From IMG/VR virus record IMGVR_UViG_3300033516_000069, positions 1 to 60,993 of that record: DNA of 60,993 nucleotides; one strand, written 5' to 3'. The notes below the pieces were generated by a model. That model was not told where the DNA came from. It saw only the letters and a list, made by a program, of their open reading frames with translations, and ran no database searches. The stretch is from a virus. Its lineage: Duplodnaviria; Caudoviricetes. The position numbers and the translations under genes are program-made. Positions 1 to 57,093 of the stretch are shown piece after piece; the stretch's first letter is position 1; each line of letters opens with the position of its first letter.

Positions 1-80
1 ACCAATCAAGGATTGGCTTCGTTTCGAAAACGAATGGGCGCTTCGGCGCTATGGAGCGTGACCATAACCTTCCGCCATGC

Positions 81-156
81 ACAAATCACGCGCACGATGC
101 ACAAAACGTGCGCGAGGTACACAAAACGGGCGCGTGACCCACAAAACACACGCAAC
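81..156. repeat. four ~20-bp periodic units, each starting (C)ACAAA
   Basis: ACAAA at exactly 81, 101, 121, 141 followed by CGC-rich tails; tails mutually complementary. Confidence 0.75.
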
Positions 157-158
157 AC

Positions 159-232
159 TGGATCTTGATGTAACGGTAGCATAACTGACTCTGAATCAGT
201 TCGTGGTGGTTCGAATCCACCAGATCCAACCA
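159..232 (+). tRNA. tRNA-Gln(CUG)
   Basis: TGGATCT/AGATCCA acceptor, ACTGA-CTCTGAA-TCAGT anticodon arm, GTTCGAATC T loop, CCA. Confidence 0.95.
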
Positions 233-235
233 TAT

Positions 236-310
236 GGAAGCGAAGTCAAAGTAGTGCGACACTGGATTGTGGCTCCAGGTAATAGGGTGCAACTCCCTAC
301 GCTCCCTCCA
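236..310 (+). tRNA. tRNA-His(GUG), atypical (no G-1:C73)
   Basis: CTGGA-TTGTGGC-TCCAG anticodon arm; GGAAGCG/CGCTCCC acceptor with one mismatch; U73, CCA. Confidence 0.8.
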
Positions 311-314
311 AATT

Positions 315-388
315 GGGCTATTAGTATATCGGTAGTACATTTCTCTGGCAGAGAAAAGGGCTGAGTTCGATTCTCAGATGGTCCACCA
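315..388 (+). tRNA. tRNA-Ala(GGC)
   Basis: TTTCT-CTGGCAG-AGAAA; G3:U70 Ala identity pair; CCA. Confidence 0.93.
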
Positions 389-390
389 AT

Positions 391-546
391 TTCAGTGAAA
401 AGGAATCTTATTAAGGTTATGTCCAAAGTAACCCACGGGGTTCGACTCCCCAGCCTGAGCCATTTGGGCAATGAGAACCGGGTTTCTATCGTCTAAACAA
501 GACACTCTAGTTTGAATTAAGAGAGATATAAGTCTGAGTAACTGAA
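391..546 (+). ncRNA. structured tRNA-like ncRNA, copy 1 (family unassigned)
   Basis: Terminal helix TTCAGT/ACTGAA; ends conserved with copy 2; internal T arm GGGG-TTCGACT-CCCC and downstream D-arm-like TCGTCTAAACAAGAC. Confidence 0.75.
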
Positions 547-551
547 TATAT

Positions 552-625
552 GCCGGATTCGGATAGTGGCATTCCGCCTGTTTCGTAATCAGGATACCGT
601 GGTTCAATTCCACGATCCGGCACCA
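552..625 (+). tRNA. tRNA-Thr(CGU)
   Basis: GCCGGAT/ATCCGGC acceptor, loop TTCGTAA, CCA. Confidence 0.9.
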
Positions 626-626
626 A

Positions 627-795
627 AATCAGTGAATGGGAATCTTTTGTGGTACTGACGGCGATATGCCCGATGTAACCTAGTGGGGTTCAAATCCCCA
701 ATCGCCCGTCAATGGGCGGTTGTTCACACTTACGGAAAAGTGGTTAGTTTAAATAAAACACTCCTTGTGAGAGATATAAGTCCGAGTAACTGATT
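627..795 (+). ncRNA. structured tRNA-like ncRNA, copy 2
   Basis: AATCAGT/ACTGATT terminal helix; TCAGTGAA..GGAATCTT ... GAGAGATATAAGTCCGAGTAACTGA; T arm TGGGG-TTCAAAT-CCCCA; D-arm-like TAGTTTAAATAAAAC. Confidence 0.75.
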
Positions 796-800
796 AATAT

Positions 801-874
801 GCTGTTTTAGGATAGTGGTATTCTGCATCCTTGGTATGGATGAGACGGGGGTCCGATTCCCTCAAACAGCACCA
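801..874 (+). tRNA. tRNA-Thr(GGU)
   Basis: CATCC-TTGGTAT-GGATG; GCTGTTT/CAAACAGC acceptor region; CCA. Confidence 0.9.
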
Positions 875-878
875 TCAT

Positions 879-951
879 ACGTAGTGCAAGCCGGGCTTGC
901 GCCGAACTCCAAATCCGGTTGAGGTTGGTTCAACTCCAACACTACGTGCCA
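879..951 (+). tRNA. tRNA-Trp(CCA)
   Basis: ACGTAGT/ACTACGT acceptor, loop CTCCAAA, G73, CCA. Confidence 0.85.
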
Positions 952-1195
952 GAGCGATTGCTGAGTTGACATGAAAAAAATCAAAATAGGCAATTGATAA
1001 CGCGGATAAAAGCCCACTAACACCGCTACACAATAAAGTTAAACATCGACCTCGTAGGGGAAGATGGTGAGCAACATCTAAGGACCATGGAAAGAAAACT
1101 CTGAAATGAGGTAGGTATCCATGTGACGCGGGGGTTTCCCTTTAACCCGCTAAACCAAAAGAAACAGTATGGTGTATGCCACACTGAGGGAGCCA

Positions 1196-1270
1196 CCGCA
1201 TGTAGTACAATGGTTAGTACATTCGTCTGATACACGAAAGATCCTAGTTCGATTCTAGGTTTGCGGACCA
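1196..1270 (+). tRNA. tRNA-Ile(GAU)
   Basis: TTCGT-CTGATAC-ACGAA; GTTCGATTC; CCA. Confidence 0.9.
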
Positions 1271-1274
1271 TCAT

Positions 1275-1351
1275 AGGCACTATCTTCACTGGTTGTGAAG
1301 GCTCGTCTGATAAGCGATTTAAGCTGGGTTCGATTCCCAGGGTGCCCACCA
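1275..1351 (+). tRNA. tRNA-Ile(GAU), second divergent copy
   Basis: TCGT-CTGATAA-GCGA; GGTTCGATTCC; CCA. Confidence 0.87.
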
Positions 1352-1356
1352 TTCAT

Positions 1357-1432
1357 CAGTCTGTGGGATAGAAGTTCTGTCCACTTGTTTTGGGAACAAG
1401 GGGTGCTGGAGCGTTACCAGCCAGATTGACCA
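1357..1432 (+). tRNA. tRNA-Pro(UGG), aberrant T loop
   Basis: CAGTCTG/CAGATTG acceptor; CTTGT-TTTGGGA-ACAAG; T loop AGCGTTA; CCA. Confidence 0.82.
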
Positions 1433-1437
1433 TTCAT

Positions 1438-1512
1438 GCTCGTATCTTCTATGTAGTAAGAATCCCGATTCTCAATCGGATAAACAGAGTGCAAGTCTCT
1501 GTACGAGTACCA
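1438..1512 (+). tRNA. tRNA-Glu(CUC)
   Basis: GCTCGTA/TACGAGT acceptor; CCGA-TTCTCAA-TCGG; CCA. Confidence 0.88.
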
Positions 1513-1540
1513 AATATATCTGTAACACTTGAAGCGGATT

Positions 1541-1548
1541 TATAAATA
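1541..1548 (+). promoter_or_regulatory. T4-type late promoter TATAAATA
   Basis: Exact motif 5 nt before ATG 1554; recurs before many genes. Confidence 0.7.
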
Positions 1549-1553
1549 ATTGT

Positions 1554-1958
1554 ATGGAAAAGAACGACGGAGACTCTGACAGATTCCGCCCAACTCAGAT
1601 GCATCCAATCCATGAGTTGACAAAAAGAACAGACAAAATCCCAAAAGGCTTTCTATGTCCTTCTTGTGGACACCTTGCCGTAGATGAAGATGAATTACTT
1701 GGCGCAACGTGTCCAAAGTGCCTACAACAGTGGCTCATAGAGCAAAAAGTTCAACAAATGGTTCCTATCAGTGAATTGCAGGACGAAAGAGAATCGGCAT
1801 TGGTTCATACTATCGTGGTTTCTGAAAAGTTGAAAATAGATTTTGATACGCCACCATACGATGATACAACGAAGATAATGCCTAATATAGATGATATGGT
1901 AATACAAAAGAAAATAAAGAAAGTAACGGATTCTGATGATAGAATACCGGGACTATAA
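1554..1958 (+). CDS. hypothetical protein with Zn-ribbon (CPSC..CPKC)
   Basis: 134-aa ORF filling the gap between tRNAs, two CxxC pairs. Confidence 0.75.
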   Translation: MEKNDGDSDRFRPTQMHPIHELTKRTDKIPKGFLCPSCGHLAVDEDELLGATCPKCLQQWLIEQKVQQMVPISELQDERESALVHTIVVSEKLKIDFDTPPYDDTTKIMPNIDDMVIQKKIKKVTDSDDRIPGL

Positions 1959-1961
1959 CAT

Positions 1962-2038
1962 GCCCTTGTGATGAAATTGGCAAACATGTCAGCCTTAGAA
2001 GCTGAATCTTGCAGGTTCGACTCCTGTCGGGGGCACCA
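1962..2038 (+). tRNA. tRNA-Leu(UAG), short variable loop
   Basis: TCAGC-CTTAGAA-GCTGA; 5-nt variable region; A73 CCA. Confidence 0.92.
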
Positions 2039-2042
2039 TAAT

Positions 2043-2117
2043 GCGCGTCTAGTTTAGTGGTCTGAACGCTTGATTGACATTCAAGAGGTTCTGGTTCAAT
2101 TCCAGGGATGCGTACCA
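2043..2117 (+). tRNA. tRNA-Val(GAC)
   Basis: CTTGA-TTGACAT-TCAAG; GCGCGTC/GATGCGT; CCA. Confidence 0.92.
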
Positions 2118-2119
2118 GT

Positions 2120-2244
2120 AAGGTTGATTGCAGCAATCCAAATCCAAAAACTAACTGTAAATTAGAAGGACTTGGTTCGAATCCAAGCTCGCCCTAAGCA
2201 AGCGATGTGGTGTACCGGTAGCACAAAACAAGGATCAACCTGTA
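2120..2244 (+). ncRNA. circularly permuted tRNA mimic (YrlA/Y-RNA-like) carrying a GUA anticodon-type arm
   Basis: Closing helix AGGTTGAT/ATCAACCT; order anticodon arm (CTAA-CTGTAAA-TTAG), T arm (CTTGG-TTCGAAT-CCAAG), closed hairpin, D arm (GTGT-ACCGGTA-GCAC). Confidence 0.75.
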
Positions 2245-2269
2245 ACGCCCCGAAGCTAAAGGGGCACAT

Positions 2270-2343
2270 GCCCGATTCGTCTAACAGAAGGACACAACGC
2301 TACGAACGTTGGAATTTAGGTGCAAATCCTAAGTTGGGTGCCA
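2270..2343 (+). tRNA. tRNA-Arg(ACG)
   Basis: CAACG-CTACGAA-CGTTG; CCA. Confidence 0.92.
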
Positions 2344-2348
2344 ATCAT

Positions 2349-2424
2349 GGTGAGAGTAAGTTATGTAGTAAACTACTGGTCTGTGAAACCGGAAAAGCGA
2401 TTGCAAGTATCGTCTCTCACCCCA
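2349..2424 (+). tRNA. tRNA-His(GUG), canonical G-1:C73
   Basis: G-GTGAGAG/CTCTCAC-C-CCA; loop CTGTGAA. Confidence 0.9.
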
Positions 2425-2437
2425 AGTTTCTTTTCAT

Positions 2438-2524
2438 GTGTCCGTGGCGTAACTAGCAGCCGCACTACTTTGAGAGAGTAGCGGGAGAAATCCCGTGTAG
2501 GTGCAAATCCTATCGGGCACACCA
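2438..2524 (+). tRNA. tRNA-Leu(GAG), long variable arm
   Basis: CTACT-TTGAGAG-AGTAG; V arm CGGG-AGAAAT-CCCG; CCA. Confidence 0.9.
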
Positions 2525-2531
2525 TTTTCAT

Positions 2532-2607
2532 CTGAGTGTAGGTCAACAGTAGACGGCTCGTTTTGGAAGCGAGAGGTAGCTTGGTGCGACTCCAGCCACT
2601 CAGACCA
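2532..2607 (+). tRNA. tRNA-Pro(UGG)
   Basis: CTGAGTG/CACTCAG; CTCGT-TTTGGAA-GCGAG; CCA. Confidence 0.88.
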
Positions 2608-2718
2608 AGTAGTTAGTCCTGAAAAACTTACGGTTAAAAACCGAACAGTTAAGGTCTGTTAGTTCACAGTCAGAGTCGAGAAACTAACCGCTGCGCCAAG
2701 CGTTCTGACGGGCGATAT

Positions 2719-2792
2719 CGGACATTGGGATAATGGTAATCCGCCAGCTTCGGGAGCTTGAGACGGCAGTTCGATTCTGCCATGTCCGACCA
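2719..2792 (+). tRNA. tRNA-Pro(CGG)
   Basis: CGGACAT/ATGTCCG; loop TTCGGGA; GTTCGATTC; CCA. Confidence 0.9.
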
Positions 2793-2817
2793 GATAAATA
2801 ATGATAAGGAGACTACC

Positions 2818-2955
2818 ATGGCTACATTATCATTACTCGCAAGTATCACATCAATCTTGGTTAATCTTTACACTCTCTGGTCAGTTCGCAAGACACTGAT
2901 TCAAGGTGCTAAAAATGCTGCGGAAGAAGCAGAAAAGATTATCAAGAAAATTTAA
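2818..2955 (+). CDS. small single-TM membrane protein (45 aa)
   Basis: AAGGAG RBS before ATG 2818; hydrophobic N-terminal helix, charged tail. Confidence 0.65.
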   Translation: MATLSLLASITSILVNLYTLWSVRKTLIQGAKNAAEEAEKIIKKI

Positions 2956-2956
2956 T

Positions 2957-3031
2957 CGTGGTGGGTTGGAATAGTTTCCAAACGACCCTCATAAGGTCTT
3001 TAAGAGAGTGCAATCCTCTACTCCACGACCA
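2957..3031 (+). tRNA. tRNA with CAU anticodon (Met or Ile2)
   Basis: GACC-CTCATAA-GGTC; CGTGGTG/CTCCACG; CCA; lacks initiator GGG/CCC stem. Confidence 0.8.
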
Positions 3032-3042
3032 GCGCAATTGGA

Positions 3043-3163
3043 TGCTTAGACCGGAAAATCCCGCAAGGGTCTTAGTGTAATGGTTAGCACCCCCGCCCAA
3101 AGCGGGGAGATCAGGTTCGAATCCTGTTAAAGTAACGCTAGAGTTTACCGGTCGAAAGAAGTA
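3043..3163 (+). ncRNA. acceptor-less tRNA mimic on a helix with GUCGAAAG motif (Y-RNA-like)
   Basis: D arm TAGTGTAATGGTTAGCAC, GC-rich arm CCCCGC-CCAAA-GCGGGG, T arm CAGG-TTCGAAT-CCTG enclosed by GACCGG/CCGGTC then GAAAG loop and TGCTT/AAGTA; no CCA. Confidence 0.7.
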
Positions 3164-3271
3164 GGGCGGCGGCGGTTGCCCGAAAAGCTCCGACAGTGGA
3201 TGATTGCCGCCACTATAAAACAAAGAGCGGTCGCGTTCAACACCCCCTAGTGCGTTAAACTTCGGGACCAT

Positions 3272-3348
3272 GCGGTTATAGCCCAATCGGCAGAGGCGTT
3301 AGGTCGAGAACCTAAATGTTACAAGTTCGAATCTTGTTAGCCGCACCA
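3272..3348 (+). tRNA. tRNA-Leu(GAG), short variable loop, C33
   Basis: TTAGG-TCGAGAA-CCTAA; GCGGTTA/TAGCCGC; A73 CCA. Confidence 0.85.
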
Positions 3349-3465
3349 AATCTGAGCCAATAGAGGACGTAAAGGCACTAATTAATCCGTAATCTTTAGG
3401 CTTTGCAAAGCTGAAAAGATGCAGGCTGCTTTATGGGTGGTGCGACTCCACACAGAACACTTTTT

Positions 3466-3779
3466 GTAAATCAGACAATCGCTGGGGACTCCAAACCTAG
3501 AGGAAAGTCGGGGCACCAAACAAAAATCTACTGGTTAACGACCAGCATACTTTTTCAGTAGGTATGAGGAAAGGGCAGTAAGAAATAAACCGCCGATGGC
3601 TTCGCAAGAAGATCAGGTAAGGGTTGAAAATTCGGCTTAAGAAACCGGACTTCTCATAGTAATATGAGTCGAGTGTAACCCCTAGATGGTGCAAGGCAGT
3701 AATTGCCGCTTGAGGTCAACAGTAATGTTGATCCTAGACAAATGATTGTCCAACGACAGAACCCCGCTTACCGATTTAC
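3466..3779 (+). ncRNA. rnpB: RNase P RNA (bacterial type A-like, compact, ~314 nt)
   Basis: P1 GTAAATC/GATTTAC; P2 GACAATC/GATTGTC; CR-I GAGGAAAGTCGGGGCAC; CAGGTAAGGGT; GGTGCAAG; CCTAGACAAATGA; CR-V ACAGAACCCCGCTTAC complementary to CR-I (P4). Confidence 0.93.
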
Positions 3780-3798
3780 TTTACTGGAATTTTTTCAT

Positions 3799-3877
3799 GC
3801 CCCTGTAGTAGAACTGGCAAATACTAACGGCTTAAACCCGTTGAAACCTGTGGGTTCGAATCCCACTAGGGGCACCA
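3799..3877 (+). tRNA. tRNA-Leu(UAA), short variable loop
   Basis: AACGG-CTTAAAC-CCGTT; GGTTCGAATCC; CCA. Confidence 0.92.
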
Positions 3878-3883
3878 TTTCAT

Positions 3884-3958
3884 AGGCGATTAATTCAATG
3901 GTGGAATGTTGCTTTCACATAGCAAATGCCACTGGTTCGATTCCAGTATCGCCTACCA
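3884..3958 (+). tRNA. tRNA-Val(CAC)
   Basis: AGGCGAT/ATCGCCT; TTGCT-TTCACAT-AGCAA; CCA. Confidence 0.92.
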
Positions 3959-4076
3959 TAACGCTGCATCGACGGGCAAATATCGGTGTCTCTAGGAAAT
4001 TGCAGAAGATCACCTAGTATAATATAAAACATTAAATGTTGCATGCGTTAGAGTTTATATAGGAAAACTCATTAAT

Positions 4077-4155
4077 GGGGCTGTAGCAGAACCAGCATAT
4101 GCGGTCGTTTCAAAAGCGGCGTCATTTGTGGGTGCAAATCCCACCAGCCCTACCA
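4077..4155 (+). tRNA. tRNA-Leu(CAA), short variable loop
   Basis: GGGGCTG/CAGCCCT; GTCGT-TTCAAAA-GCGGC; CCA. Confidence 0.88.
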
Positions 4156-4159
4156 TCAT

Positions 4160-4236
4160 GTCGGTGTAGCCCAATTGGAAGAGGCATTTCATTCAGGGTG
4201 AAACCAGTAAGAGTTCGAATCTCTTCACCGATACCA
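4160..4236 (+). tRNA. tRNA-Leu(CAG), short variable loop
   Basis: GTCGGTG/CACCGAT; TTTCA-TTCAGGG-TGAAA; CCA. Confidence 0.9.
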
Positions 4237-4278
4237 TTGTGTTTTCCACAAGTATGTTGACTATTTAAGCAAACCCGA

Positions 4279-4286
4279 TATAAATA
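4279..4286 (+). promoter_or_regulatory. T4-type late promoter TATAAATA
   Basis: Exact motif upstream of HNH gene. Confidence 0.65.
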
Positions 4287-4306
4287 TATTATATAGGGGA
4301 TGCTTA

Positions 4307-5020
4307 ATGAGACATATAAGTAAATTTGATTTATTGACAATTGAAGATTTGAAAGCAGTAATAAACCAATCAGATAGTTATAGAGAAGTTATTTTAAAAG
4401 TTGGTCTTGATGGTGAGTGTGGGTGTCACTATATAAAGCTAAAATCTATAATTAAAAATAATAATATAGATGTTAGTCATATGACTAGAAGAAAGAATTC
4501 TATTCATCATAATAAATATTTCGGAAAAAGACCAATAGAAAATTATTTGGTTAAATCTAATAAAAAATTGTTAGGGCATTTAAAAATTAGACTTTTAGAA
4601 GAGAGTGTCTTTGCTAATAAATGTGCATTGTGTGGTCAACTACCAATACATAATGGATTAAAATTGACTCTTCAACTGGATCACATAAATGGTGATCCAA
4701 CTGATAATACTAAAGAAAATTTGAGATTTTTATGCCCAAATTGTCACTCACAAACATTAAATTGGGGATCTAAAAATTCCAAGTTGAAGCCAACACCAGT
4801 AATTAAGATTAAGAAAGAGAGAAAGTGTAAATTTTATACAACAAAAGAAGAATTAGAAAAATTATTAAAAGAAAAATCTATGAGAGAAATAGGAAAAATG
4901 TTTTCTGTATCTGACAATGCTATAAAGAAGCGGTGTATAAAATTAGGAATTGAGCTTGAGTCTTACTATTGGCAAAATAAACTTCTTCATAAAGGCACGC
5001 CGGGATCGTTCAACGGATAG
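4307..5020 (+). CDS. HNH homing endonuclease with C-terminal HTH
   Basis: CALCG...LQLDHINGDPTDNTKENLRFLCPNCH; SMREIGKMFSVSDNAIKKR; very AT-rich; 3' end overlaps tRNA-Arg. Confidence 0.92.
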   Translation: MRHISKFDLLTIEDLKAVINQSDSYREVILKVGLDGECGCHYIKLKSIIKNNNIDVSHMTRRKNSIHHNKYFGKRPIENYLVKSNKKLLGHLKIRLLEESVFANKCALCGQLPIHNGLKLTLQLDHINGDPTDNTKENLRFLCPNCHSQTLNWGSKNSKLKPTPVIKIKKERKCKFYTTKEELEKLLKEKSMREIGKMFSVSDNAIKKRCIKLGIELESYYWQNKLLHKGTPGSFNG

Positions 5021-5073
5021 GACAAGACCCTCCGAAGGTCAAAATCTAGGTTCAATTCCTAGTCCCGGTGCCA
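4999..5073 (+). tRNA. tRNA-Arg(CCG)
   Basis: GCCGGGA/TCCCGGT; GACC-CTCCGAA-GGTC; CCA. Confidence 0.92.
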
Positions 5074-5074
5074 C

Positions 5075-5102
5075 TTGACAAGCATGAATTCTTTGGTAGA
5101 AT
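5075..5102 (+). promoter_or_regulatory. sigma70-like early promoter
   Basis: TTGACA-N16-TAGAAT with TGn extension; similar TTGACT..TAGAAT at 6051-6077. Confidence 0.6.
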
Positions 5103-5108
5103 CTATTC

Positions 5109-5438
5109 ATGCCTCCGAAGCAGCCAAAACTTAAAATGTTTATAGTCCTTCGATGGGATCTTCCAGCCGAAGCGGCTGTAGTCGCGGCTGCTCACGCCTC
5201 TATCGGAACTTATCTGACATTCATAGAGAATCCTCTAATGCAGGAGTGGCAGAAAACTTCCTTCATCAAGCGCATTTGTAAAGCCTTTGACCACAGCCAC
5301 TTCCAGCGGCTCAAGCTGCTGGGAATGCACCGTGTTTTCACAGAGTCATGTCTTGGTAACTCGGAAGTATCCATCGGTTTCGACATGGTTCCCCCACCCT
5401 ACTACACCATGGAAGAAATTCCACTCTGGACAAGATAA
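5109..5438 (+). CDS. peptidyl-tRNA hydrolase, Pth2 family
   Basis: KMFIVLRWDL...AAAHAS...EW...KRI pattern of the PTH2 fold; adjacent to tRNA array. Confidence 0.75.
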   Translation: MPPKQPKLKMFIVLRWDLPAEAAVVAAAHASIGTYLTFIENPLMQEWQKTSFIKRICKAFDHSHFQRLKLLGMHRVFTESCLGNSEVSIGFDMVPPPYYTMEEIPLWTR

Positions 5439-5448
5439 ATAGAAACGT

Positions 5449-6054
5449 ATGAAAAGAATATTCCTAGACATGGATGGTGTGATCGTAAACTTCGCAAAAG
5501 GCTACGAGGATCGCGTCAACGAACGAGAACCCGGCTATCTAGAAAAGATCGGCTACAATGGAGACTTCAAGCAAATTGAAGATTTTATAAAGGCTGAATT
5601 TGAACGTATAGCCCCAAACGATAAAGAAAAGAAAAAAGCCAAGTACAGAGCTTCGAATAAGTTCTGGAGCTTCGTCACCGGTGATAAGCAATGGTGGGTT
5701 GACCTCCCCTGGATGCCAGATGGTAAGGAGCTTTTCAATAATCTCAGAACGTTAAGACAAAATGAAGTCGTGTCGGAGTTCACCATCCTTAGCGCACCAT
5801 CGAAGGTCGATCCGTGTGTCCCAGGAGCCAAGCAGGCGTGGCTTGACAAGCATGGTGTGTCGAGCAGCTTCGACAGAATCATTTTCGAAAATGACAAATT
5901 CAAGTACGCTGAAAGTTTCAACGATATCCTCATTGACGATACTCCTAAGAAACTGGATGCGTGGCAAAATGCTGGCGGAACTCCCCTGTTACATACGAGT
6001 ACCGCAAATACCCTTAAAATCCTCAACGAGATTCTGTTACAAGATAACACTTGA
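5449..6054 (+). CDS. HAD-family 5'(3')-deoxyribonucleotidase
   Basis: IFLDMDGV, ILSAP, K..WL, LIDD motifs. Confidence 0.88.
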   Translation: MKRIFLDMDGVIVNFAKGYEDRVNEREPGYLEKIGYNGDFKQIEDFIKAEFERIAPNDKEKKKAKYRASNKFWSFVTGDKQWWVDLPWMPDGKELFNNLRTLRQNEVVSEFTILSAPSKVDPCVPGAKQAWLDKHGVSSSFDRIIFENDKFKYAESFNDILIDDTPKKLDAWQNAGGTPLLHTSTANTLKILNEILLQDNT

Positions 6055-6083
6055 CTCTCATTGTAATCCTGTAGAATAAAAAC

Positions 6084-6875
6084 ATGAAAATCCAGGTCGT
6101 GTCTGACCTCCACCTTGAGGTCAAGCCTTTTGCGTTGTTTGTCAAGCCAGAAGCCGAAGTGCTTGTGCTGGCTGGGGACATTATCGCTCTTGGTCATCAG
6201 TGCAGCAAGATGTACCACCTTGAGAACATCATCAAGAATGTACAGATCCCAATTGTCTATGTCACCGGAAACCACGAATACTACGGCTACGGTCAGGTCA
6301 ACGGGTCGAACAAGATCCTCAAGACCCTGGAAGCCAAGTACCCGCATTTCCATTTCCTTGACAATGAGGTATGGGTCTACAAGGACGTTGAGTTCATCGG
6401 CTCGACCCTGTGGAGCAACTTCGATTTGGCACAGGACAAAATGTTGTTCTGCGCTGGTGTCGAGACTGCCATCAATGACTTTAATTTAATCCTATCGAAC
6501 AACGTGGGGCGGCTGACCGCACGGGAAGTCATTGGGTTCAACATCGCTGCGCGGGAGTTCATAGACAAGGCTGTTGTGAAGCAGACTGGTCTAAAGAAGT
6601 GCGTGGTCACTCACTTCATTCCAACTGAACAGGGAATCGCTGAACAGTGGAAGGGAAGCTCGCTGAACCCGTACTTCGCGTGCAACTGTGAGCAGCTTAT
6701 GCCAGGGGTCCATACGTGGATCTTCGGACATACTCACTCGTCGTTCGACTTCCAGCTAAAGCATGTTCATTCGTCGGGTCACGTTCTTGTTGACTGTCAC
6801 ATGGTCTGCAACCCACGGGGTTACGCAGTCGAAAACAAGGGTGGCTTCGATCCGCAAAAAATAATTTATGTGTAA
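6084..6875 (+). CDS. calcineurin-like metallophosphoesterase
   Basis: SDLHLE, AGD, GNHE, VTH, GHTH, NPRGY. Confidence 0.92.
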   Translation: MKIQVVSDLHLEVKPFALFVKPEAEVLVLAGDIIALGHQCSKMYHLENIIKNVQIPIVYVTGNHEYYGYGQVNGSNKILKTLEAKYPHFHFLDNEVWVYKDVEFIGSTLWSNFDLAQDKMLFCAGVETAINDFNLILSNNVGRLTAREVIGFNIAAREFIDKAVVKQTGLKKCVVTHFIPTEQGIAEQWKGSSLNPYFACNCEQLMPGVHTWIFGHTHSSFDFQLKHVHSSGHVLVDCHMVCNPRGYAVENKGGFDPQKIIYV

Positions 6876-7619
6876 ATGAAAAGATATACATATCAAGAAT
6901 TCGTAAATAATGCAAGAAAAATACATCATAATAAATATGATTATAGTAAATTTGTATATACAAATAGTAGGACAAAAGGCGTTATCATTTGTTTGAAACA
7001 TGATGTTGAGTTTTTACAAAATCCTCAACATCATTTGCGTGGGTGTGGCTGTAGAATATGCGCCATACAAGACATTGCTGCGAGAAAATATACGACAGAA
7101 TGGTTTATAACACAGTCTAATAAAATTCATGGTAATGCCTATGATTATAGTCTGGTTTGTTACATAAGTAATAAACTAAAAGTAAAAATCATATGTAGAC
7201 GCCATGGAGTTTTTGAGCAGACACCTAACTCTCATATATCTGGTAAGCAAGGATGCCCAACTTGTAAAAAATCAAAAGGAGAGTTGGAAGTTAAAAAGTT
7301 TCTCGACGTTAATAACATAAAATATGTTACACAGAAAAAATTTGATAGCTGTAAAGGGGTATCCAAGCTACTACCTTTTGATTTCTATTTACCAGACTAC
7401 AATATTTGTATAGAATATGATGGTATTCAACATTTTAGAGGTTGGTGTAGATACAAAGAGCAAAAAGAAAAGAATTTGATTTTTTTAAATAAGATAAGAA
7501 ATAATGATAGTGTTAAGACAAACTATTGTAAATACAATAATATAAAGCTTATTAGAATAAAATACTCTGAATTTAAAAGCATAGATACTATTCTAAGAAA
7601 AGAAATATTGAAAAACTAA
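6876..7619 (+). CDS. putative homing endonuclease (Zn-binding repeats + PD-(D/E)xK/Vsr-like domain)
   Basis: Two H..KYDYS..Y...IIC..H..F.Q.P..H..G.GC repeats; SKGE; LPFDFYLP..CIEYDG.QH; AT-rich. Confidence 0.85.
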   Translation: MKRYTYQEFVNNARKIHHNKYDYSKFVYTNSRTKGVIICLKHDVEFLQNPQHHLRGCGCRICAIQDIAARKYTTEWFITQSNKIHGNAYDYSLVCYISNKLKVKIICRRHGVFEQTPNSHISGKQGCPTCKKSKGELEVKKFLDVNNIKYVTQKKFDSCKGVSKLLPFDFYLPDYNICIEYDGIQHFRGWCRYKEQKEKNLIFLNKIRNNDSVKTNYCKYNNIKLIRIKYSEFKSIDTILRKEILKN

Positions 7620-7703
7620 TTTATTGTGATATAATAAATTATCCTCTTGGAGACTTTAATTAACCAGCCGCTAGTCTCACGGCTTAAAACATAAGGAGTG
7701 CAA

Positions 7704-8411
7704 ATGATGCACATAGATGATATTGTGATTGTCCTCGTTGACACACAAAATAAACCTTTCCGTGAATTGAATTCACAGAGAGTAGATCGTGGACGCAAGT
7801 GCGAAGTATATGCCCCTGTAAATACTGAGTACAAGTTCCTCGTCAAGAACAATTCAGACAAGCGTATCAAAATCGACATTGACATTGACGGAAGTTCCGT
7901 CTCTGGTAATGGACTCATTTTGAATGCTTATGGTTACACCTACATTGAGCGTTTCGCGGAAGTGGATCGTCGCTTCAAGACCTCGCTCAAGTCCGGTGAA
8001 GGTGTTGCAGATCCTACCAGTCCCGAGAACGGAATCATCAAGGTTCGTGTTCATAAGGAGAAGGCGCAGGAAATTAAGCTTGCTCCAATCGTGATCGGCA
8101 TGAACGCAAGTTTCACCGTAGGGGATAGCACCCCAACAGTTGCTACATACTCCGCTTCGGTAGAACCTGCTGTCAAGACCAGCGGCGGTATCCGTAACAA
8201 CATCAAGCGCCTGAGAGCATCTTTACCAGTTGCCGAAAGTCTCGCAACTGTCGAAGGTGATGCCAGCGGTCAGCAATTCGTTCCTACGACTTGGAACGGT
8301 GAGGATATAGCATTCGGTGAAATCGTGTTCACGTTCTTCCTCAAGCTCGCGGCAAATGCGATTGATCCAGAGTACGCGCAGTATCTGGAGCTTAAAAAGA
8401 AGTTTGGCTAA
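7704..8411 (+). CDS. hypothetical protein
   Basis: AAGGAG RBS; ORF closed by terminator. Confidence 0.8.
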   Translation: MMHIDDIVIVLVDTQNKPFRELNSQRVDRGRKCEVYAPVNTEYKFLVKNNSDKRIKIDIDIDGSSVSGNGLILNAYGYTYIERFAEVDRRFKTSLKSGEGVADPTSPENGIIKVRVHKEKAQEIKLAPIVIGMNASFTVGDSTPTVATYSASVEPAVKTSGGIRNNIKRLRASLPVAESLATVEGDASGQQFVPTTWNGEDIAFGEIVFTFFLKLAANAIDPEYAQYLELKKKFG

Positions 8412-8420
8412 ATACCAACG

Positions 8421-8448
8421 AAAAACCCAGGCAAGAGCCTGGGTTTTT
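8421..8448. terminator. bidirectional intrinsic terminator
   Basis: AAAAACCCAGGC-AAGA-GCCTGGGTTTTT between convergent genes. Confidence 0.85.
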
Positions 8449-8451
8449 CCT

Positions 8452-9189
8452 TTACTTTTTGGCTTGGTTAGCAGCTTTGAGCTTGGCTATATGAGCAGCC
8501 CACTCAGGGGTTCCTGGTTTTGGTCCTGCACCGGCAGCTTTGGCACGGGCGGCGTCAGTTGTTCCCATGGAAGCTGAAGGATCGTCAAACTGCTTACGGA
8601 GCTTATCAGGCTTGGCAAGCTTACGGTCAAGCGACTTTGGTTGAAGCTTGAGAAGTGAGAACACATAGTTGCCACGGGCGAATGCTTTGGAGATATCTTC
8701 CTTGGTAACGTACTCACGACCAGATTCGTCTTTCTTGATTATACTGAAAGGAACTGGAACCATGCCGAGCTTGAGTTCATTAACACGGATCTGGTCAGCG
8801 GCTTTGTCTACCTTGTAAACGTTAACGATATGACCCTTCTTCTGTGGTCCCTTTGGATAGTCATTTGGGATTGCATCTGGATTGATGAAAATGATTCCAT
8901 CCTTGATGGAGGTCTGTGGGAATACATCTTGGTGAGCTTCTGGTGGGAGTTCCTCGCCCTTCTCTGGTGTAGGCTGCTTTACGCCACCTACCTGCGGCTC
9001 GTCATCATCTTCACCCGACCCAGCGGTTGCATCTGGTGGAAGTTCTTCATCCTGATCGCCGCCATCCTGGTCATCCAATTCTGGTGGTTCATTATCGAAC
9101 TCATCATATGATTCTTTAATGGGAGCATTAAAACGCTTTTCATTTGTAGCAAATAAGCGTTCAAGGCTTTCAAATAGTGGATCAGGCAT
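8452..9189 (-). CDS. late protein, probable internal head protein
   Basis: Minus-strand TATAAATA upstream, AGGAG RBS, acidic N-terminus with LFE/IKE motifs. Confidence 0.75.
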   Translation of the reverse strand: MPDPLFESLERLFATNEKRFNAPIKESYDEFDNEPPELDDQDGGDQDEELPPDATAGSGEDDDEPQVGGVKQPTPEKGEELPPEAHQDVFPQTSIKDGIIFINPDAIPNDYPKGPQKKGHIVNVYKVDKAADQIRVNELKLGMVPVPFSIIKKDESGREYVTKEDISKAFARGNYVFSLLKLQPKSLDRKLAKPDKLRKQFDDPSASMGTTDAARAKAAGAGPKPGTPEWAAHIAKLKAANQAKK

Positions 9190-9206
9190 AAAAAACTCCT
9201 ACTGTT

Positions 9207-9223
9207 TATTTATAATATAAATA
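9207..9223. promoter_or_regulatory. back-to-back divergent TATAAATA late promoters
   Basis: TATTTATA 9207-9214 (minus) and TATAAATA 9216-9223 (plus). Confidence 0.75.
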
Positions 9224-9230
9224 CGATTAT

Positions 9231-9647
9231 ATGGCAACAAGAACTAAAGTTGGCATTAAAATAGATTCCCCAGATAACTGGAACTCTGTCGTATTATCAC
9301 TAGCCATGACCGGTGGATTCATTATATCACACGGTGGTATGAATGAAATTCATATATGTGCGCCAAAGATGAACCAAGATACGCTGGTTCTTGAGCAAAC
9401 GTTCCTCACATATTGGATAGAAGATAAGATGTTACCTGAGTTATATGACGCCGTATTTGTACAACAAGAGGAACTTAATATTCACTTAGAAGATACGGAA
9501 GAACAAGAAAGAATCGCTAAGGAACGAAATGAAGCGACCATGACCTACTATAAAAAGTATAAAAAGAAGAAAAAAGACACTAAAATGGTTAGTGATGATT
9601 CGATACATACGGATGATCCAGATTCATGTGAGCATGAAGGCGATTAA
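9231..9647 (+). CDS. hypothetical protein
   Basis: ORF after late promoter. Confidence 0.75.
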   Translation: MATRTKVGIKIDSPDNWNSVVLSLAMTGGFIISHGGMNEIHICAPKMNQDTLVLEQTFLTYWIEDKMLPELYDAVFVQQEELNIHLEDTEEQERIAKERNEATMTYYKKYKKKKKDTKMVSDDSIHTDDPDSCEHEGD

Positions 9648-9684
9648 TCGTATAAATATAAATTAGCACAATAAGGAGTCACAA

Positions 9685-10206
9685 ATGAGTCTCGTAGAAT
9701 ACCGTCAAGCAGTACGTGAGAAACTTGGTTTGAAAGAAGAAGATCCTGCCATGTCATCAGGTGGAGACACTGGTATGGACTCTGGGGAAATGGGTGGCAT
9801 GAGTGGTATGGATGAGGCAACTCTCAATTCTGTACTTGAACTCGTCCAGAAGGAAATTCTCAAGCGCGAAGCCGTTGGTGAAGTTGAAGGTATGGAAGAT
9901 CCGGCAGCCAAGACGGTAGCCCCACCAGAAGCCGGTACGGCACCTGCTGGTCAGCCACCTGTAGCTGCTGAGCCTGGAGCTTCAGTTACCCTTGAGGCTG
10001 AGCAGGTTGCTGATGACATTTACTTCGAAATGCTCAACTCATTCAAGAATAATATTGCCAACTGTGATGATGCCAGCCGTAAAGAAATGTACCGTAAGGG
10101 ATACAACCACTTGTATAAGATGCGCGAGAAGTTCATTAAAGAAATGACTGCATGTGAAGAGCAGCCGACTGCTCCTGGCACCCCTGGTGCCACACAAACA
10201 CGCTAA
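9685..10206 (+). CDS. late protein, probable internal head protein
   Basis: TATAAATA 9651-9658, AAGGAG RBS, LVE/LKE/IKE motifs, low-complexity A/P/E linkers. Confidence 0.75.
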   Translation: MSLVEYRQAVREKLGLKEEDPAMSSGGDTGMDSGEMGGMSGMDEATLNSVLELVQKEILKREAVGEVEGMEDPAAKTVAPPEAGTAPAGQPPVAAEPGASVTLEAEQVADDIYFEMLNSFKNNIANCDDASRKEMYRKGYNHLYKMREKFIKEMTACEEQPTAPGTPGATQTR

Positions 10207-10227
10207 ATCTTAAATAATTAAAGTTAG

Positions 10228-10262
10228 ACAAAGAAGCGTCCGAAAAACGGACGCTTCTTTGT
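10228..10262. terminator. intrinsic terminator
   Basis: ACAAAGAAGCGTCCG/CGGACGCTTCTTTGT hairpin. Confidence 0.8.
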
Positions 10263-10287
10263 TATAATAAACATAAAGGAATATTTC

Positions 10288-10740
10288 ATGACTGACACCA
10301 CAGCCACCCCAACCCAACCACCAGCAGCACAGCCAAGTCTCCAAGACCATATTGCTGCTCAAAAACAAGCAGTAGTTGCAAAGGCACAGGACTCTGTTAA
10401 CACTATACATCAGATTATTGATTCATGGGTTCAGAACTTCATCGTATCTGAAAAAGTCAAGACCAAGAGAACTGATCAAGTTAACCTCCTTTTGGGTTTT
10501 ATTAATCAACTTGCTAATGAGGGTATTCCACAGATTAATGTGTGTGGTACAGAAATACAAGATCCGGTTATGTCGAATCGTGTTCTTGAATGCAACAACA
10601 ATATTATGTCTGCTGCTAAGAACGTGTTGACGAATATTCAACAACAAGAAGCTGCGTTCCAGGCAGAACTCAAGGCAGCTATGCAGCCAGCAGGCGCTCC
10701 ACCAGCAGGAAAGACAGAAGTTAAGGCGCAGGAAGCCTAA
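10288..10740 (+). CDS. hypothetical protein
   Basis: AAGGA RBS, 150 aa helical ORF. Confidence 0.75.
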   Translation: MTDTTATPTQPPAAQPSLQDHIAAQKQAVVAKAQDSVNTIHQIIDSWVQNFIVSEKVKTKRTDQVNLLLGFINQLANEGIPQINVCGTEIQDPVMSNRVLECNNNIMSAAKNVLTNIQQQEAAFQAELKAAMQPAGAPPAGKTEVKAQEA

Positions 10741-10771
10741 AAGTTTCTATAAATAGTATCTGAGGATCTAT

Positions 10772-11143
10772 ATGGAAAACATCGAAGAATTCAAGAAGCG
10801 TATCAGAGAGTCAATTGTCGGCGGTATGTCACAGACATACGGTGTTGGTGCTGTTCACGAAAAGACAGATGTTAAAGTAGATCAACTCGCTGGCGCTGTA
10901 ATTGGTACTGGGGCACAGAAAACTGGTGATGCAATTGCAAAAATGGATCCAAATACGTTTGCTGAGTTTGCTAAAAAGATTGATGCGGCTGGTCTTGCTA
11001 TGCTTACCGGACAGTTTGCGACTGCTACTCCTGCTGCTGACCCCGCTGCTGATCCTGCTGCTGCTGCAACAGATCCCGGCGCAGCACCGGCAGATCCTGC
11101 CGCTGGTGCCGTGCCAGCGGAGCAAGAACTTACGGATTTATAA
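10772..11143 (+). CDS. late protein with ADPA repeats, probable internal head protein
   Basis: TATAAATA 10748-10755, GAGG RBS, IRES/VHE motifs. Confidence 0.75.
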   Translation: MENIEEFKKRIRESIVGGMSQTYGVGAVHEKTDVKVDQLAGAVIGTGAQKTGDAIAKMDPNTFAEFAKKIDAAGLAMLTGQFATATPAADPAADPAAAATDPGAAPADPAAGAVPAEQELTDL

Positions 11144-11157
11144 TCTTTTCTTAGAAG

Positions 11158-11191
11158 AAAAAACCGACTGGATTTTTCCAGTCGGTTTTTT
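11158..11191 (+). terminator. intrinsic terminator
   Basis: AAAAAACCGACTGGA/TCCAGTCGGTTTTTT. Confidence 0.85.
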
Positions 11192-11221
11192 TGTTGCCTA
11201 TTCAAAAACATAATTTATAAT

Positions 11222-11605
11222 ATGACTATGGCTACTGGTCTTATTCTTATGCCAATTGGTGGAACACCAACAATGCGGCAAAATGTTTACGCAGAATTGT
11301 CTAAGAATATTAGTATGGTATACACAGGGCTGAATGATATCATGAATATAACCGGTGATAATGCTCTTAAAGCAGATGTCATTATTTCAAATTTAAAAAC
11401 TCACATGTCCCATTGTGTCACACATATATTTTTTGACTGTGATAACAAAACACCAGAGCAACGCAAAGTAATTTTTGATTTGGCAAAGTCATCCAATTAT
11501 TTAGTTGTTGCGTTGGTGCTTGACACACCCAATATTGGTAGTACAATGGTAAAAGAAGCGCCCACGTGGGACGAAGGTTTTAAAAATATTTACTACAAGG
11601 AATAA
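11222..11605 (+). CDS. degenerate polynucleotide-kinase-like (AAA_33) protein
   Basis: FDCDN....R, VVALVL, EAPTWDEGF motifs; Walker A lost. Confidence 0.6.
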   Translation: MTMATGLILMPIGGTPTMRQNVYAELSKNISMVYTGLNDIMNITGDNALKADVIISNLKTHMSHCVTHIFFDCDNKTPEQRKVIFDLAKSSNYLVVALVLDTPNIGSTMVKEAPTWDEGFKNIYYKE

Positions 11606-11606
11606 T

Positions 11607-12038
11607 ATGCCTAGAGTCAAATCAACACTTTTTCGCCCACAACTCGGTGCTGCTTATATTGCGGTAAATACAAAGACCCATGAAAAGATCGTGTGTCATG
11701 TATTGAAGCCCACTGACGCTTTGAAATATGGTCCGGTCAGATCGGGTAGATCGTGTAAGAGAGGAAATGAGTTCTTCAAGATTTTTATAAACGATAGAGT
11801 CGTAAAGATGAATAACAGCTTAGAAAATGGCACATGTCTTAGTGACGATAAAACCTGGGAATTCACTGGTGATAAGCCCACGGGCAAAGCTCGTTCTGCG
11901 AAGGCGTGTACATCAAGCGCAAAAAAGACAAAGAAAGTCCCTTGTGAAGTTTCTAAAAAAGCAGCCAAGGTAGCTATTCCACCTAAACCAAAGGGCGTTG
12001 AATTTATTTCACAAGAAGCCCTTTCAAAAATAATCTAA
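11607..12038 (+). CDS. hypothetical basic protein
   Basis: Tightly packed ORF. Confidence 0.7.
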   Translation: MPRVKSTLFRPQLGAAYIAVNTKTHEKIVCHVLKPTDALKYGPVRSGRSCKRGNEFFKIFINDRVVKMNNSLENGTCLSDDKTWEFTGDKPTGKARSAKACTSSAKKTKKVPCEVSKKAAKVAIPPKPKGVEFISQEALSKII

Positions 12039-12050
12039 AGAAAGTAATAT

Positions 12051-12404
12051 ATGACAGATCAAACCGAAACTAAAATATTCCTCGCCATTTACCCACCAGA
12101 TGGATCGGAAGTTCATGTTCATTGGCGCGGACATGCCACAGTGGAAGCCGCCACCAAGGAACTTGCAAATCTACGTAAGCTCTTAATTGGGCAAAAGAAA
12201 AAGCCATTTGACTGTTATGTGTACGAGGCTGAAGTTCCCCTATATGGATTTAAGGTATATGAACTTGACGAGGTTGACATGAACTTCTATGAAGAAGAGA
12301 ACGTCGAACAAGCCGATGAGGTTCAGCGCAAGTTGGACAAGGCAATCTACGAGGTTGGGGTGCTCGCTGAAGAAGAGCGTAAAGCGGCAGCACAGAAAGC
12401 ATAA
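12051..12404 (+). CDS. hypothetical protein
   Basis: Tightly packed ORF. Confidence 0.7.
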   Translation: MTDQTETKIFLAIYPPDGSEVHVHWRGHATVEAATKELANLRKLLIGQKKKPFDCYVYEAEVPLYGFKVYELDEVDMNFYEEENVEQADEVQRKLDKAIYEVGVLAEEERKAAAQKA

Positions 12405-12407
12405 TCT

Positions 12408-12926
12408 ATGGGATACCTCCGCAATAAAGTAGCTTATCTCGCTGGTCCGATCCATGCCGTCGCTGACGATGGCATTGGTTGGCGCGATGCAATCACCCCG
12501 ATGTTGGAGTCACATGGAGTCGTTGTAGATGATCCGTGTAAAAAGACTGTCAACGGTGTCGGTGAAGTTAAAGATGATAAGAAAATGATCATTGAATTGA
12601 TCAAGTCTGGTAACTTTGCAGAAGCAAAGAAACGTTTCTATCCAATTGTAAGAAAAGATTTAAGATCAGTTGATAAGGCTGATTTTTTAGTTGCAGTATA
12701 TGACCCAACAATACACATGGTGGGTACTCTTCATGAGATGGTTATTGCCCATACACAACGTAAACCTATTCTTCTGTGGTTTGATAAGAACAAGATAGAT
12801 AAGTTTAATCCCTGGTGTTTGACGCTTGTTAAAGAAAACATGATATTCACAGATTGGAATGCTATGTTCGATTACTTGCGGAAAATAGATGATGGTGAGT
12901 TTGACTCTAGTTATTGGACGTTGTAA
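12408..12926 (+). CDS. nucleoside 2-deoxyribosyltransferase-like protein (paralogue 1)
   Basis: AYLAGPI...GWR...DP...DLRSVDKADF...GT..E...KP. Confidence 0.85.
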   Translation: MGYLRNKVAYLAGPIHAVADDGIGWRDAITPMLESHGVVVDDPCKKTVNGVGEVKDDKKMIIELIKSGNFAEAKKRFYPIVRKDLRSVDKADFLVAVYDPTIHMVGTLHEMVIAHTQRKPILLWFDKNKIDKFNPWCLTLVKENMIFTDWNAMFDYLRKIDDGEFDSSYWTL

Positions 12927-12978
12927 GTTACTGTCCCAAACATATGAATTGCCATATAAATACTAACAAGGAGAAGTT

Positions 12979-13740: not shown

Positions 13741-13752
13741 TTAAGGAAACCT

Positions 13753-56626: not shown

Positions 56627-56635
56627 TTCATATCC

Positions 56636-57019: not shown

Positions 57020-57093
57020 CGTAGAACCCCGCAAGAGACTTTCTCTTGTTATTTATAATATTTTACCAGACTTGCGCCCTGATTTTAAAACTA

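Follow-up and report, generated by a model that had tools for sequence, protein, structure and literature searches.

The window analyzed here, the entire 60,993-nt IMG/VR virus record IMGVR_UViG_3300033516_000069, carries a gene for a bacterial type A RNase P RNA at positions 3466-3779 on the plus strand, flanked on both sides by tRNA genes of the same orientation. We consider this gene to be, with good probability, a functional rnpB (type A) of a large tailed phage that forms one cistron of a polycistronic tRNA array. The encoded RNA belongs to a known family and occurs here in a reduced form and in a setting new for it, the phage tRNA array. An earlier reading of the letters alone (the original prediction) had proposed a phage-encoded RNase P ribozyme embedded in its own substrate transcript; at the sequence level, the ribozyme is supported by an intact core and by strong covariation among its relatives.

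At gathering level, scanning of the whole window against all Rfam families gave 18 matches to tRNA and a single one to RNase P RNA. The RNase P match to RF00010 (RNaseP_bact_a) extends over positions 3463-3786 (+) with 179.4 bits and an E-value of 2.6e-56 (cmscan), compared with a gathering score of 100, and covers model positions 1-367 of 367 without truncation. The covariance-model check suggested with the original prediction thus gave a full-length match rather than a low score. Helix P1 closes at exactly 3466 and 3779, confirming the predicted ends and the length of 314 nt. The paired (P), joining (J), and loop (L) elements of the RNA are located as follows (helices and domains as in the cmscan alignment, P13 and P14 as marks of type A); related loci carry three-digit numbers (L003 and so on).

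3466-3779, +, RNase P RNA gene, bacterial type A, 314 nt, from the P1 5' strand to the P1 3' strand
3466-3472/3773-3779, +, P1, 7 bp
3474-3480/3744-3750, +, P2
3482-3486/3496-3500, +, P3, only 5 bp
3505-3513, +, P4 5' strand AAGUCGGGG, part of the catalytic core, with bulged U3508
3526-3687, +, specificity domain: P7, P8, P9, P10/11, J11/12, P12 (GCAA loop), P13, P14 (GUAA loop)
3631-3649, +, P13, type A mark
3650-3671, +, P14 with GUAA loop, type A mark
3695-3707, +, mini-P15, 13-nt hairpin GGCA-GUAAU-UGCC (stem 3695-3698/3704-3707)
3714-3733, +, P18 with a GNRA loop (GUAA)
3762-3769, +, P4 3' strand CCCCGCUU within the conserved ACAGAACCCCGCUUA (sequence and cmscan alignment)

The P4 words GTCGGGG and CCCCGC are both present, whereas the model consensus reads GUCCGGG/CCCGGC. 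The C-G to G-C flip at G3510-C3765 affects both strands, and the compensatory change noted in the original prediction is therefore a true one. The long-range P4 helix has its conserved GAGGAAAGUC...ACAGAA...GCUUA strands, and all nine pairs of P5/P7 are standard. The single-stranded segments GAGGAAAGUC, GCAA ahead of P15 (J5/15), GCUUGAG (J15/18), CCUAGA.AAUG, and ACAGAA are consensus-like, with J3/4, J5/15, J15/18, J18/2, and ACAGAA in agreement with the consensus; the P2, P3, J18/2, and J2/4 regions are likewise consensus-like, and L12, L14, and L18 are GNRA loops. Type B RNase P RNAs have P10.1, P5.1, and P15.1 in place of P13/P14. The window RNA is assigned to type A by its P13 and P14, by the GNRA loops L14 and L18, and by compensatory changes in P13, P14, and P18. 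Both the catalytic core and the specificity domain (S-domain) are intact.

Compared with the bacterial type A RNAs described by RF00010, with the E. coli M1 RNA and the Thermotoga maritima RNA as models, the window RNA shares P1-P5, P7-P14, P15, and P18, as well as the P4 pseudoknot with its bulged U, J3/4, J5/15, J15/18, J18/2, J2/4, and the GNRA loops L14 and L18. It differs in being phage-encoded and located in a tRNA array, whereas the typical gene is stand-alone and chromosomal, and in its length of 314 nt versus 367 model positions (E. coli M1 RNA has 377 nt). Further differences are the absence of P16, P17, P6, and the L15 GGU motif, the short P3, the long L9, the single flipped P4 pair, and the lack of a detected cognate rnpA.

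Selection on the RNA fold and placement in a tRNA array

Relatives of the window RNA were collected with short sequence words. A scan of IMG/VR with the P4 word found L003, and a scan of metagenome contigs with the P15 word added L212, L213, L215/L216, L217, L223, and the partial L226. All members of this lineage lie in co-oriented tRNA arrays. The RNAs of L212 and L213, the latter a 127-kb contig, are identical to that of L003, which is 81.7% identical to the window RNA. Out of 87 base pairs compared between the window and L003, 65 are unchanged, 18 are changed on both sides and still paired, and 4 are broken; differences fall at 40 of 174 paired versus 9 of 140 unpaired positions. Across the five distinct sequences of the lineage, standard pairs occupy 99.1% of the cells, and 27 of the 87 pairs are changed on both sides. 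The observed number of compensated pairs was reached in none of 500 shuffles, and slid-partner controls gave 0-2 pairs. Compensatory changes were found in P7, P8, P9, P10, P11, P12, P13, and P14, and in P18, where four of the eight pairs carry compensatory changes in both strands below a GUAA or GUGA loop. The helices P2, P4 (all 8 pairs), P5, and P15 never vary across the lineage. A low-depth variant contig from run X4 has more P18 changes with the pairing kept, as read by eye. Based on these comparisons, we concluded that the RNA fold and core are under purifying selection, which argues against a relic or a chimera.

The covariation pattern thus disfavors a pseudogene. Decay of a captured and now unused rnpB copy, carried along as a hitch-hiker, would account for the loss of peripheral elements and for a score of 179 bits, compared with 250-330 bits for typical bacterial RNAs. 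However, the excess of compensated over broken pairs, the few changes at unpaired positions, and the nearly complete pairing throughout the lineage all speak against decay, and this explanation is hardly credible.

The RNase P RNA gene is placed within a tRNA array on the same strand. The array features referred to below are:

159-5073, +, co-oriented tRNA array, 20 genes by ARAGORN
801, +, tRNA with the odd T loop TCCGATT (ARAGORN)
1357, +, tRNA with the odd T loop AGCGTTA (ARAGORN)
2270, 2438, and 4077, +, tRNAs with the odd T loop TGCAAAT (ARAGORN)
2532, +, tRNA with the odd T loop TGCGACT (ARAGORN)
3272-3348, +, tRNA-Leu(GAG) with encoded CCA, upstream neighbor (ARAGORN; Rfam 59.1 bits)
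3349-3465, +, spacer of 117 nt: ~112 nt that are absent from L003, then TTTTT right before P1
3799-3877, +, tRNA-Leu(UAA) with encoded CCA, downstream neighbor starting 19 nt past P1 (ARAGORN)
4307-5020, +, HNH-type endonuclease open reading frame (ORF) within the array, with weak Pfam HNH_3/HNH matches below the curated cut-offs

A more permissive Rfam run gave three more tRNAs at 236-307, 1438-1509, and 2350-2421. CCA is encoded in all 20 ARAGORN tRNAs and likewise in the array tRNAs of the relatives. Many of the window tRNAs are spaced 4-7 nt apart, and their leaders carry -2A/-1T in 16 of 20 cases and a CAT end in 11 of 20. In the relatives, 0-8 nt separate the Rfam match of the RNase P RNA from its flanking tRNAs: the gap to the upstream tRNA is 2 nt in L003 and L213, and that to the downstream tRNA is 6-8 nt in L216, L217, and L223. 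By pairwise alignment, the tRNA ending 2 nt ahead of the match in L003 is the homolog of tRNA-Leu(GAG). A crude promoter scan called no promoter-like site between 2734 and 4349 on the plus strand. Because of the common strand, the close spacing, and the absence of promoter calls from this interval, we infer that the RNase P RNA would be co-transcribed with the array. The proposed embedding of the ribozyme in its own substrate transcript therefore stands as a matter of anatomy, and a single transcript is what this anatomy suggests.

The insertion in the upstream spacer (3349-3460, +, 112 nt) ends in a T-arm-like GGTGG-TGCGACT-CCAC whose T loop is the same as that of the tRNA-Pro at 2532; the insertion may be a tRNA remnant.

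The reduced P15-P17 region and the protein partner

In the P15-P17 region, 4 nt stand where the model has 43 positions (cmscan alignment). P16, P17, and the L15 GGU motif are absent, and P6 is missing because P16 and P17 are missing. The remaining mini-P15 hairpin is invariant in four of the five lineage members, and L217 has one U>G change in its loop. The P15-P16-P17/L15 GGU/P6 module was treated as variable rather than disqualifying because it is also missing in some accepted relatives and in cellular RNAs of the L218 type. The L15 GGU motif is missing in the type A RNAs of Chlamydiaceae as in the window RNA (passages of PMC9945441), and archaeal type M RNAs similarly have no L15, P16, P17, or P6 (passages of PMC1874661). 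The type M RNAs also miss P8, which the window RNA keeps. The uncultured cellular RNAs L218, L219, and L224 have J5/15 and J15/18 flanks identical to those of the window RNA and a 13-nt P15 hairpin GGCA-AAAAU-AGCC. Unlike the window RNA, they are 437-461 nt long with large insertions and a canonical P4, lie outside tRNA arrays, and do not group with the window clade in the tree described below. L218 was taken as cellular because RNase J, TrpRS, and polysaccharide genes adjoin it, and the mini-P15 form is presumably the only RNase P enzyme in L218-type cells. Losses in the CCA-binding module usually accompany tRNA genes without encoded CCA. In this respect the window differs from Chlamydiaceae and from the archaea with type M RNAs, as its tRNAs encode CCA in 20 of 20 cases.

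The L15 GGU motif is described in passages of PMC9945441 as binding the CCA end of tRNA. The loss of P6 and of L15 GGU suggests that the window lineage probably relies on protein to a greater degree than E. coli M1 RNA does and that the window RNA probably handles substrate 3' ends differently. The original prediction had proposed an altered specificity for atypical T loops. Such loops do occur in 6 of the 20 tRNAs, where the T loop does not start with TTC, whereas the other 14 are canonical. However, the S-domain modules match the consensus and the departure sits in the CCA-binding P15-P17 region instead, and no support was found for an altered T-loop specificity.

The loss of P6, P16, P17, and L15 GGU, which are described as important for activity in passages of PMC9945441, could also point to a non-catalytic mimic, a decoy that sequesters pre-tRNAs or the RnpA of the host and thereby throttles host tRNA maturation or regulates the phage's own. 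The lack of rnpA in the window and in five other records is in line with such a role, and the inactive camelpox RNase P-like RNA provides a precedent (passages of PMC3001073). However, P4 with its bulged U, the J5/15 adenosines, ACAGAA, the S-domain junctions, and the GNRA loops L14 and L18 are invariant or covarying, and an intact S-domain is needless for a protein sponge. Other phage lineages retain the full P15-P16 region with a GGGU stretch, as read by eye, and among cellular mini-P15 RNAs, which occur beside housekeeping genes (L218), the reduced form is presumably a working enzyme. Since the S-domain is conserved along with the catalytic core, a mere protein sponge is disfavored, and we regard a mimic as quite unlikely.

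A six-frame search of the window gave no match to PF00825 (RnpA) at E <= 1, with the control positive in 10 of 14 genomes, which bears out the absence of rnpA noted in the original prediction. PF00825 was also found in none of the five other RNase-P-bearing phage records searched, three of which are 94-100% complete, so that no RNA of this set has a detected cognate RnpA in the same genome. The original prediction had named host RnpA or an unrecognized phage protein as the partner. Both are consistent with the absence of rnpA, and we infer that the window RNA would be active as a holoenzyme with host RnpA.

The other option, a working ribozyme with one or more unrecognized phage protein cofactors in place of host RnpA, would offset the missing P15-P17/P6 in the way the extra proteins of archaeal type M enzymes do, their RNAs having lost the same elements (passages of PMC1874661). 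The P15 loop is sequence-invariant without covariation in four of five members, as a binding site might be, most window ORFs have no family match, and ~72% of the genome lies outside the window. On the other hand, no candidate protein was identified, the P2, P3, J18/2, and J2/4 regions resemble the consensus, and three other huge phages with near-complete genomes have no rnpA either, which makes reliance on the host protein the simpler reading. We consider a phage cofactor unlikely.

Several points weigh against a functional, co-transcribed phage rnpB that works with host RnpA. In the RNA itself, P3 has just 5 bp, L9 is an 11-nt loop and not GNRA, and P16, P17, the P6 pseudoknot, and L15 GGU are all absent, yet every array tRNA encodes CCA. 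Work cited in passages of PMC9945441 found P6 formation to be critical for activity, and the title of a reference given there describes the CCA interaction as essential for E. coli RNase P in vivo. With respect to the partner, the window represents ~28% of the genome and rnpA could lie in the remaining ~72%, and the near-complete records without rnpA belong to other RNase P lineages. Co-transcription is argued from spacing and a crude promoter scan. Finally, no close cellular donor was found for the window RNA, the best of 35 cellular loci having ~57% identity.

Proposed processing route and recurrence in other phages

Maturation of tRNA precursors of phage T4 requires host RNase P. If the window gene is a working rnpB, the array would be transcribed as one long precursor in which RNase P, first that of the host and then that of the phage too, would cleave the 5' end of each tRNA. 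The cut at tRNA-Leu(UAA), 19 nt downstream, would release the 3' side of the ribozyme, and 3' trimming of the upstream tRNA-Leu(GAG)-CCA would release its 5' side. The freed 314-nt RNA would then fold into its catalytic and specificity domains and bind host RnpA, and the phage ribozyme would add 5'-maturation capacity for at least 20 phage pre-tRNAs during infection. Such a route would imply that RNase P capacity, or the stability of host RNase P, limits the phage tRNA supply, and it would allow the notion of an enzyme lying within its own substrate to be put to the test.

A looser P4 pattern matched 54 IMG/VR loci, which is a lower bound because the survey was pattern-seeded. The RF00010 gathering score was reached in 41 of them, and of the 13 that missed it several are truncated by a locus end. 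Three or more co-oriented tRNAs were found within 2 kb of 19 of the 42 RF00010 matches, whose contigs measure 20-463 kb; many of the other 23 are GC-rich, high-scoring, and without tRNAs, and these GC-rich copies look cellular. All four searched huge-phage records of estimated 90-100% completeness hold one RNase P RNA copy each in the genome interior. The following arrangements between tRNA genes were observed:

L010, L020, L014, and L036: Cys-RNase P-Gly, 4-6 nt on both sides
L032 and L006: Val-RNase P-Arg, 5 and 0 nt
L018: Thr-RNase P-Gly, 0 and -1 nt

Scanning of genome contigs with the P4 word of the window gave 35 cellular loci, mostly from Burkholderiales metagenome-assembled genomes (MAGs), and a tRNA-array context in none of them. 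The pattern GCAAG..GCTTGAG..CCTAGA with variable gaps gave chance matches only, with both P4 strands in 0 of 120 loci.

A maximum-likelihood tree was built from 66 rows, after 12 of 78 had been left out as exact duplicates (5) or as truncated or badly delimited (7: L013, L021, L035, L038b, L031, L069, and L076). The array-borne RNAs fall in at least four places on this tree, which carries long-branch warnings and a reference set biased by the search words. The clade of L002, L004, L010, L014, L020, and L036 is sister to Burkholderiales MAG genes (95/94) and shares the flipped P4 pair, which hints at Burkholderiales as donor or host of this clade, not of the window clade. The phylogeny proposed with the original prediction for finding the donor and host was thus successful in part: the window clade is well supported (100/100), but it sits on a long branch in an unsafe position and has no close donor. 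On balance, it appears somewhat more probable than its opposite that large and huge phages have repeatedly captured rnpB (at least four lineages on a limited tree) as a cistron between tRNA genes. The result would be a self-servicing maturation cassette whose enzyme is excised by its own reaction, with copies that evolve reduced forms (314, 288-290, and 207 nt) and may work with phage proteins or with host RnpA in a novel manner.

The shortest of these forms comes from L031, a 190.7-kb IMG/VR contig with a tRNA array, where a 207-nt RF00010 match (positions 10596-10802, 118.5 bits) reaches both model ends. As read by eye, P1-P4, P8, P9, J11/12, and a P12 stub are kept, and P13, P14, and P15-P17 are seemingly lost, making L031 a candidate ultra-minimal bacterial-type RNase P RNA. 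Other small phage RNAs are those of L006/L032 (288 nt) and L040 (290 nt).

Public phage genomes were searched with the same RNAs. In a blastn search of INPHARED (GenBank phages), the window RNA had no match, and the RNAs of L010, L034, and L024 matched a misfiled Salmonella record in which an RNase P RNA is annotated as well as unannotated contigs of 'Acinetobacter phage MD-2021a' and 'Bacteriophage sp.' A further record, MW495066.1 (Microcystis phage MaAM05), was rejected as a phage example. This GenBank 'complete phage genome' contains an unannotated full RNase P RNA of 251.8 bits (L227 3962-4361, ~115.3-115.7 kb of the record), which is flanked by annotated fabI, engB, mtgA, and glyS and has no tRNA array, so this stretch looks like cellular DNA.

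RNase P RNA is among the few universal ribozymes and has been regarded as characteristic of cells and organelles. No prior report of a phage-encoded RNase P RNA was found in the open full-text literature, supplements and subscription journals lying outside that search, and none appears in the passages obtained from PMC6582537, PMC7162821, PMC8172020, and PMC12636597. If functional, the window RNA would be, as far as the literature was searched, the first trans-acting ribozyme of the core gene-expression machinery known to be encoded by a virus. Its neighborhood and logic are the same as those of the tRNA arrays and transfer-messenger RNA (tmRNA) of huge phages. For the huge phages of Al-Shayeb et al. 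(2020), tRNAs, tmRNAs, and SmpB are listed in passages of the paper, whose main text nowhere names RNase P, ribonuclease P, or rnpB; for the megaphages of Lui et al. (2021), passages of the paper report that Rfam found only tRNAs and one tmRNA. With a selected phage copy, the known means by which large phages take over the cell (tRNAs, tmRNA, synthetases, and ribosomal proteins) would extend to tRNA 5' maturation.

The theta (HDV-like) ribozymes of gut phages also lie beside phage tRNAs and are proposed to process them (passages of PMC10879173). They are, however, small and cis self-cleaving and are proposed for 3' trailers, whereas RNase P RNA is large, trans-acting, and multiple-turnover and acts on 5' leaders; passages of the same paper treat RNase P as a host enzyme. 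The RNase P-like RNA of camelpox and other orthopoxviruses is likewise virus-encoded, but according to passages of PMC3001073 it shows only some secondary-structure likeness and no pre-tRNA processing, whereas the window RNA is full-scoring and under structural selection. Phage copies reduced like that of the window provide natural minimal type A variants for structure-function work that have no P6, P16, P17, or L15 and yet face CCA-bearing substrates. Phage-borne copies also matter for annotation because rnpB is used to mark cellular DNA, and its presence in a contig is at times read as a sign of contamination.

The phage contig and its other features

The window is a whole IMG/VR virus record of class 'linear' with a CheckV completeness of 28%, and the full genome is estimated at roughly 200 kb from this value. 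The baseplate module identifies the contig as that of a tailed phage:

53015-58566, -, T4-like baseplate module with gp6-like wedge, gp25-like wedge, and hub with tail lysozyme (PHROG matches: phrog_219 E 1.3e-28, phrog_430 E 1.1e-36, phrog_261 E 7.9e-30)

Other window genes encode an exonuclease, dNMP kinase, dCMP deaminase, nucleoside deoxyribosyltransferases, 5'-nucleotidase, ClpP, a MoxR-type ATPase with a VWA partner, and HNH, HNH-AP2, and GIY-YIG endonucleases; most ORFs have no family match, and no integrase was found in the window. The baseplate hub had only weak N-terminal tblastn matches to phages (8-13% coverage), which suggests a phage without a close cultured relative. The GC content of the RNase P RNA (0.44) matches that of the contig. 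By tblastn, homologs of the array HNH ORF occur in the arrays of L003, L212, L213, L050, and L024, and L003/L212 also carry homologs of the window exonuclease and of two adjoining ORFs from 59.7-61 kb. Taken together, the virus record, the baseplate and endonuclease genes, the lack of an integrase, and the presence of the same RNA lineage in tRNA arrays of other assemblies corroborate the phage origin stated in the original prediction.

These data also bear on whether the array and rnpB are instead host chromosome, joined by chimeric assembly or as a provirus flank. The RNase P gene lies 3.4 kb from the contig end, several IMG/VR matches look cellular (~0.70 GC, 265-330 bits, no nearby tRNAs), and the MaAM05 record shows cellular-type DNA with rnpB filed as phage. 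Logan contigs from four microbial-mat metagenome runs (three studies) cover much of positions 1-14000, and a 313-nt contig, from a study other than that of the best holder, covers 3248-3560 with zero differences. The Logan pieces are short and low-depth, and among those listed none spans the whole RNA or the 3' junction, so their support for continuity is modest. Nevertheless, at least five distinct sequences from other assemblies have the RNA lineage in an array of the same kind, and L003/L212 tie this array to the homologs of the ORFs at 59.7-61 kb. The HNH ORFs inside the arrays, the matching GC content, the missing integrase, and the class 'linear' rather than provirus all favor phage DNA. 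Moreover, the gene is internal in huge-phage genomes of estimated 100% completeness, and the array context was seen in none of the 35 cellular loci. A cellular origin of the array is therefore very improbable.

Two long ORFs on the minus strand adjoin the baseplate genes, 35042-41668 (2208 aa) and 46971-53015 (2014 aa). They have no PHROG match, and the latter has only a sub-threshold PKD match in the Pfam scan; both may encode giant tail-fibre or baseplate-associated proteins.

Additional RNA elements were observed in the arrays. A tmRNA lies a few kb from the RNase P RNA in L003 (9515-9881) and L212 (3936-4302), where the distance to the RNase P gene is ~5 kb, and in L024 (4074-4409) and L050 (7997-8332); the window itself has none. 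A conserved non-coding element is shared by the window (3050-3235, +), L213 (6650-6832), and L217 (321-505). A tRNA-like D arm, an arm resembling that of the anticodon, and a T arm (GGTTCGAATCC) are present in this element; no acceptor stem closes them, and a ~100-nt conserved tail with hairpins comes next. Its Rfam tRNA match is only partial (23 bits), and 8 of 42 predicted pairs covary among the three sequences. An abiF RNA motif (RF03085, 38.7 bits versus a gathering score of 37) was found in the arrays of L213 (6164-6200) and L217 (106-142). Right after the last tRNA of the window, a small ORF at 5109-5438 (+) shows a weak match to PTH2 (peptidyl-tRNA hydrolase) with 21.9 bits, below the cut-off of 23.

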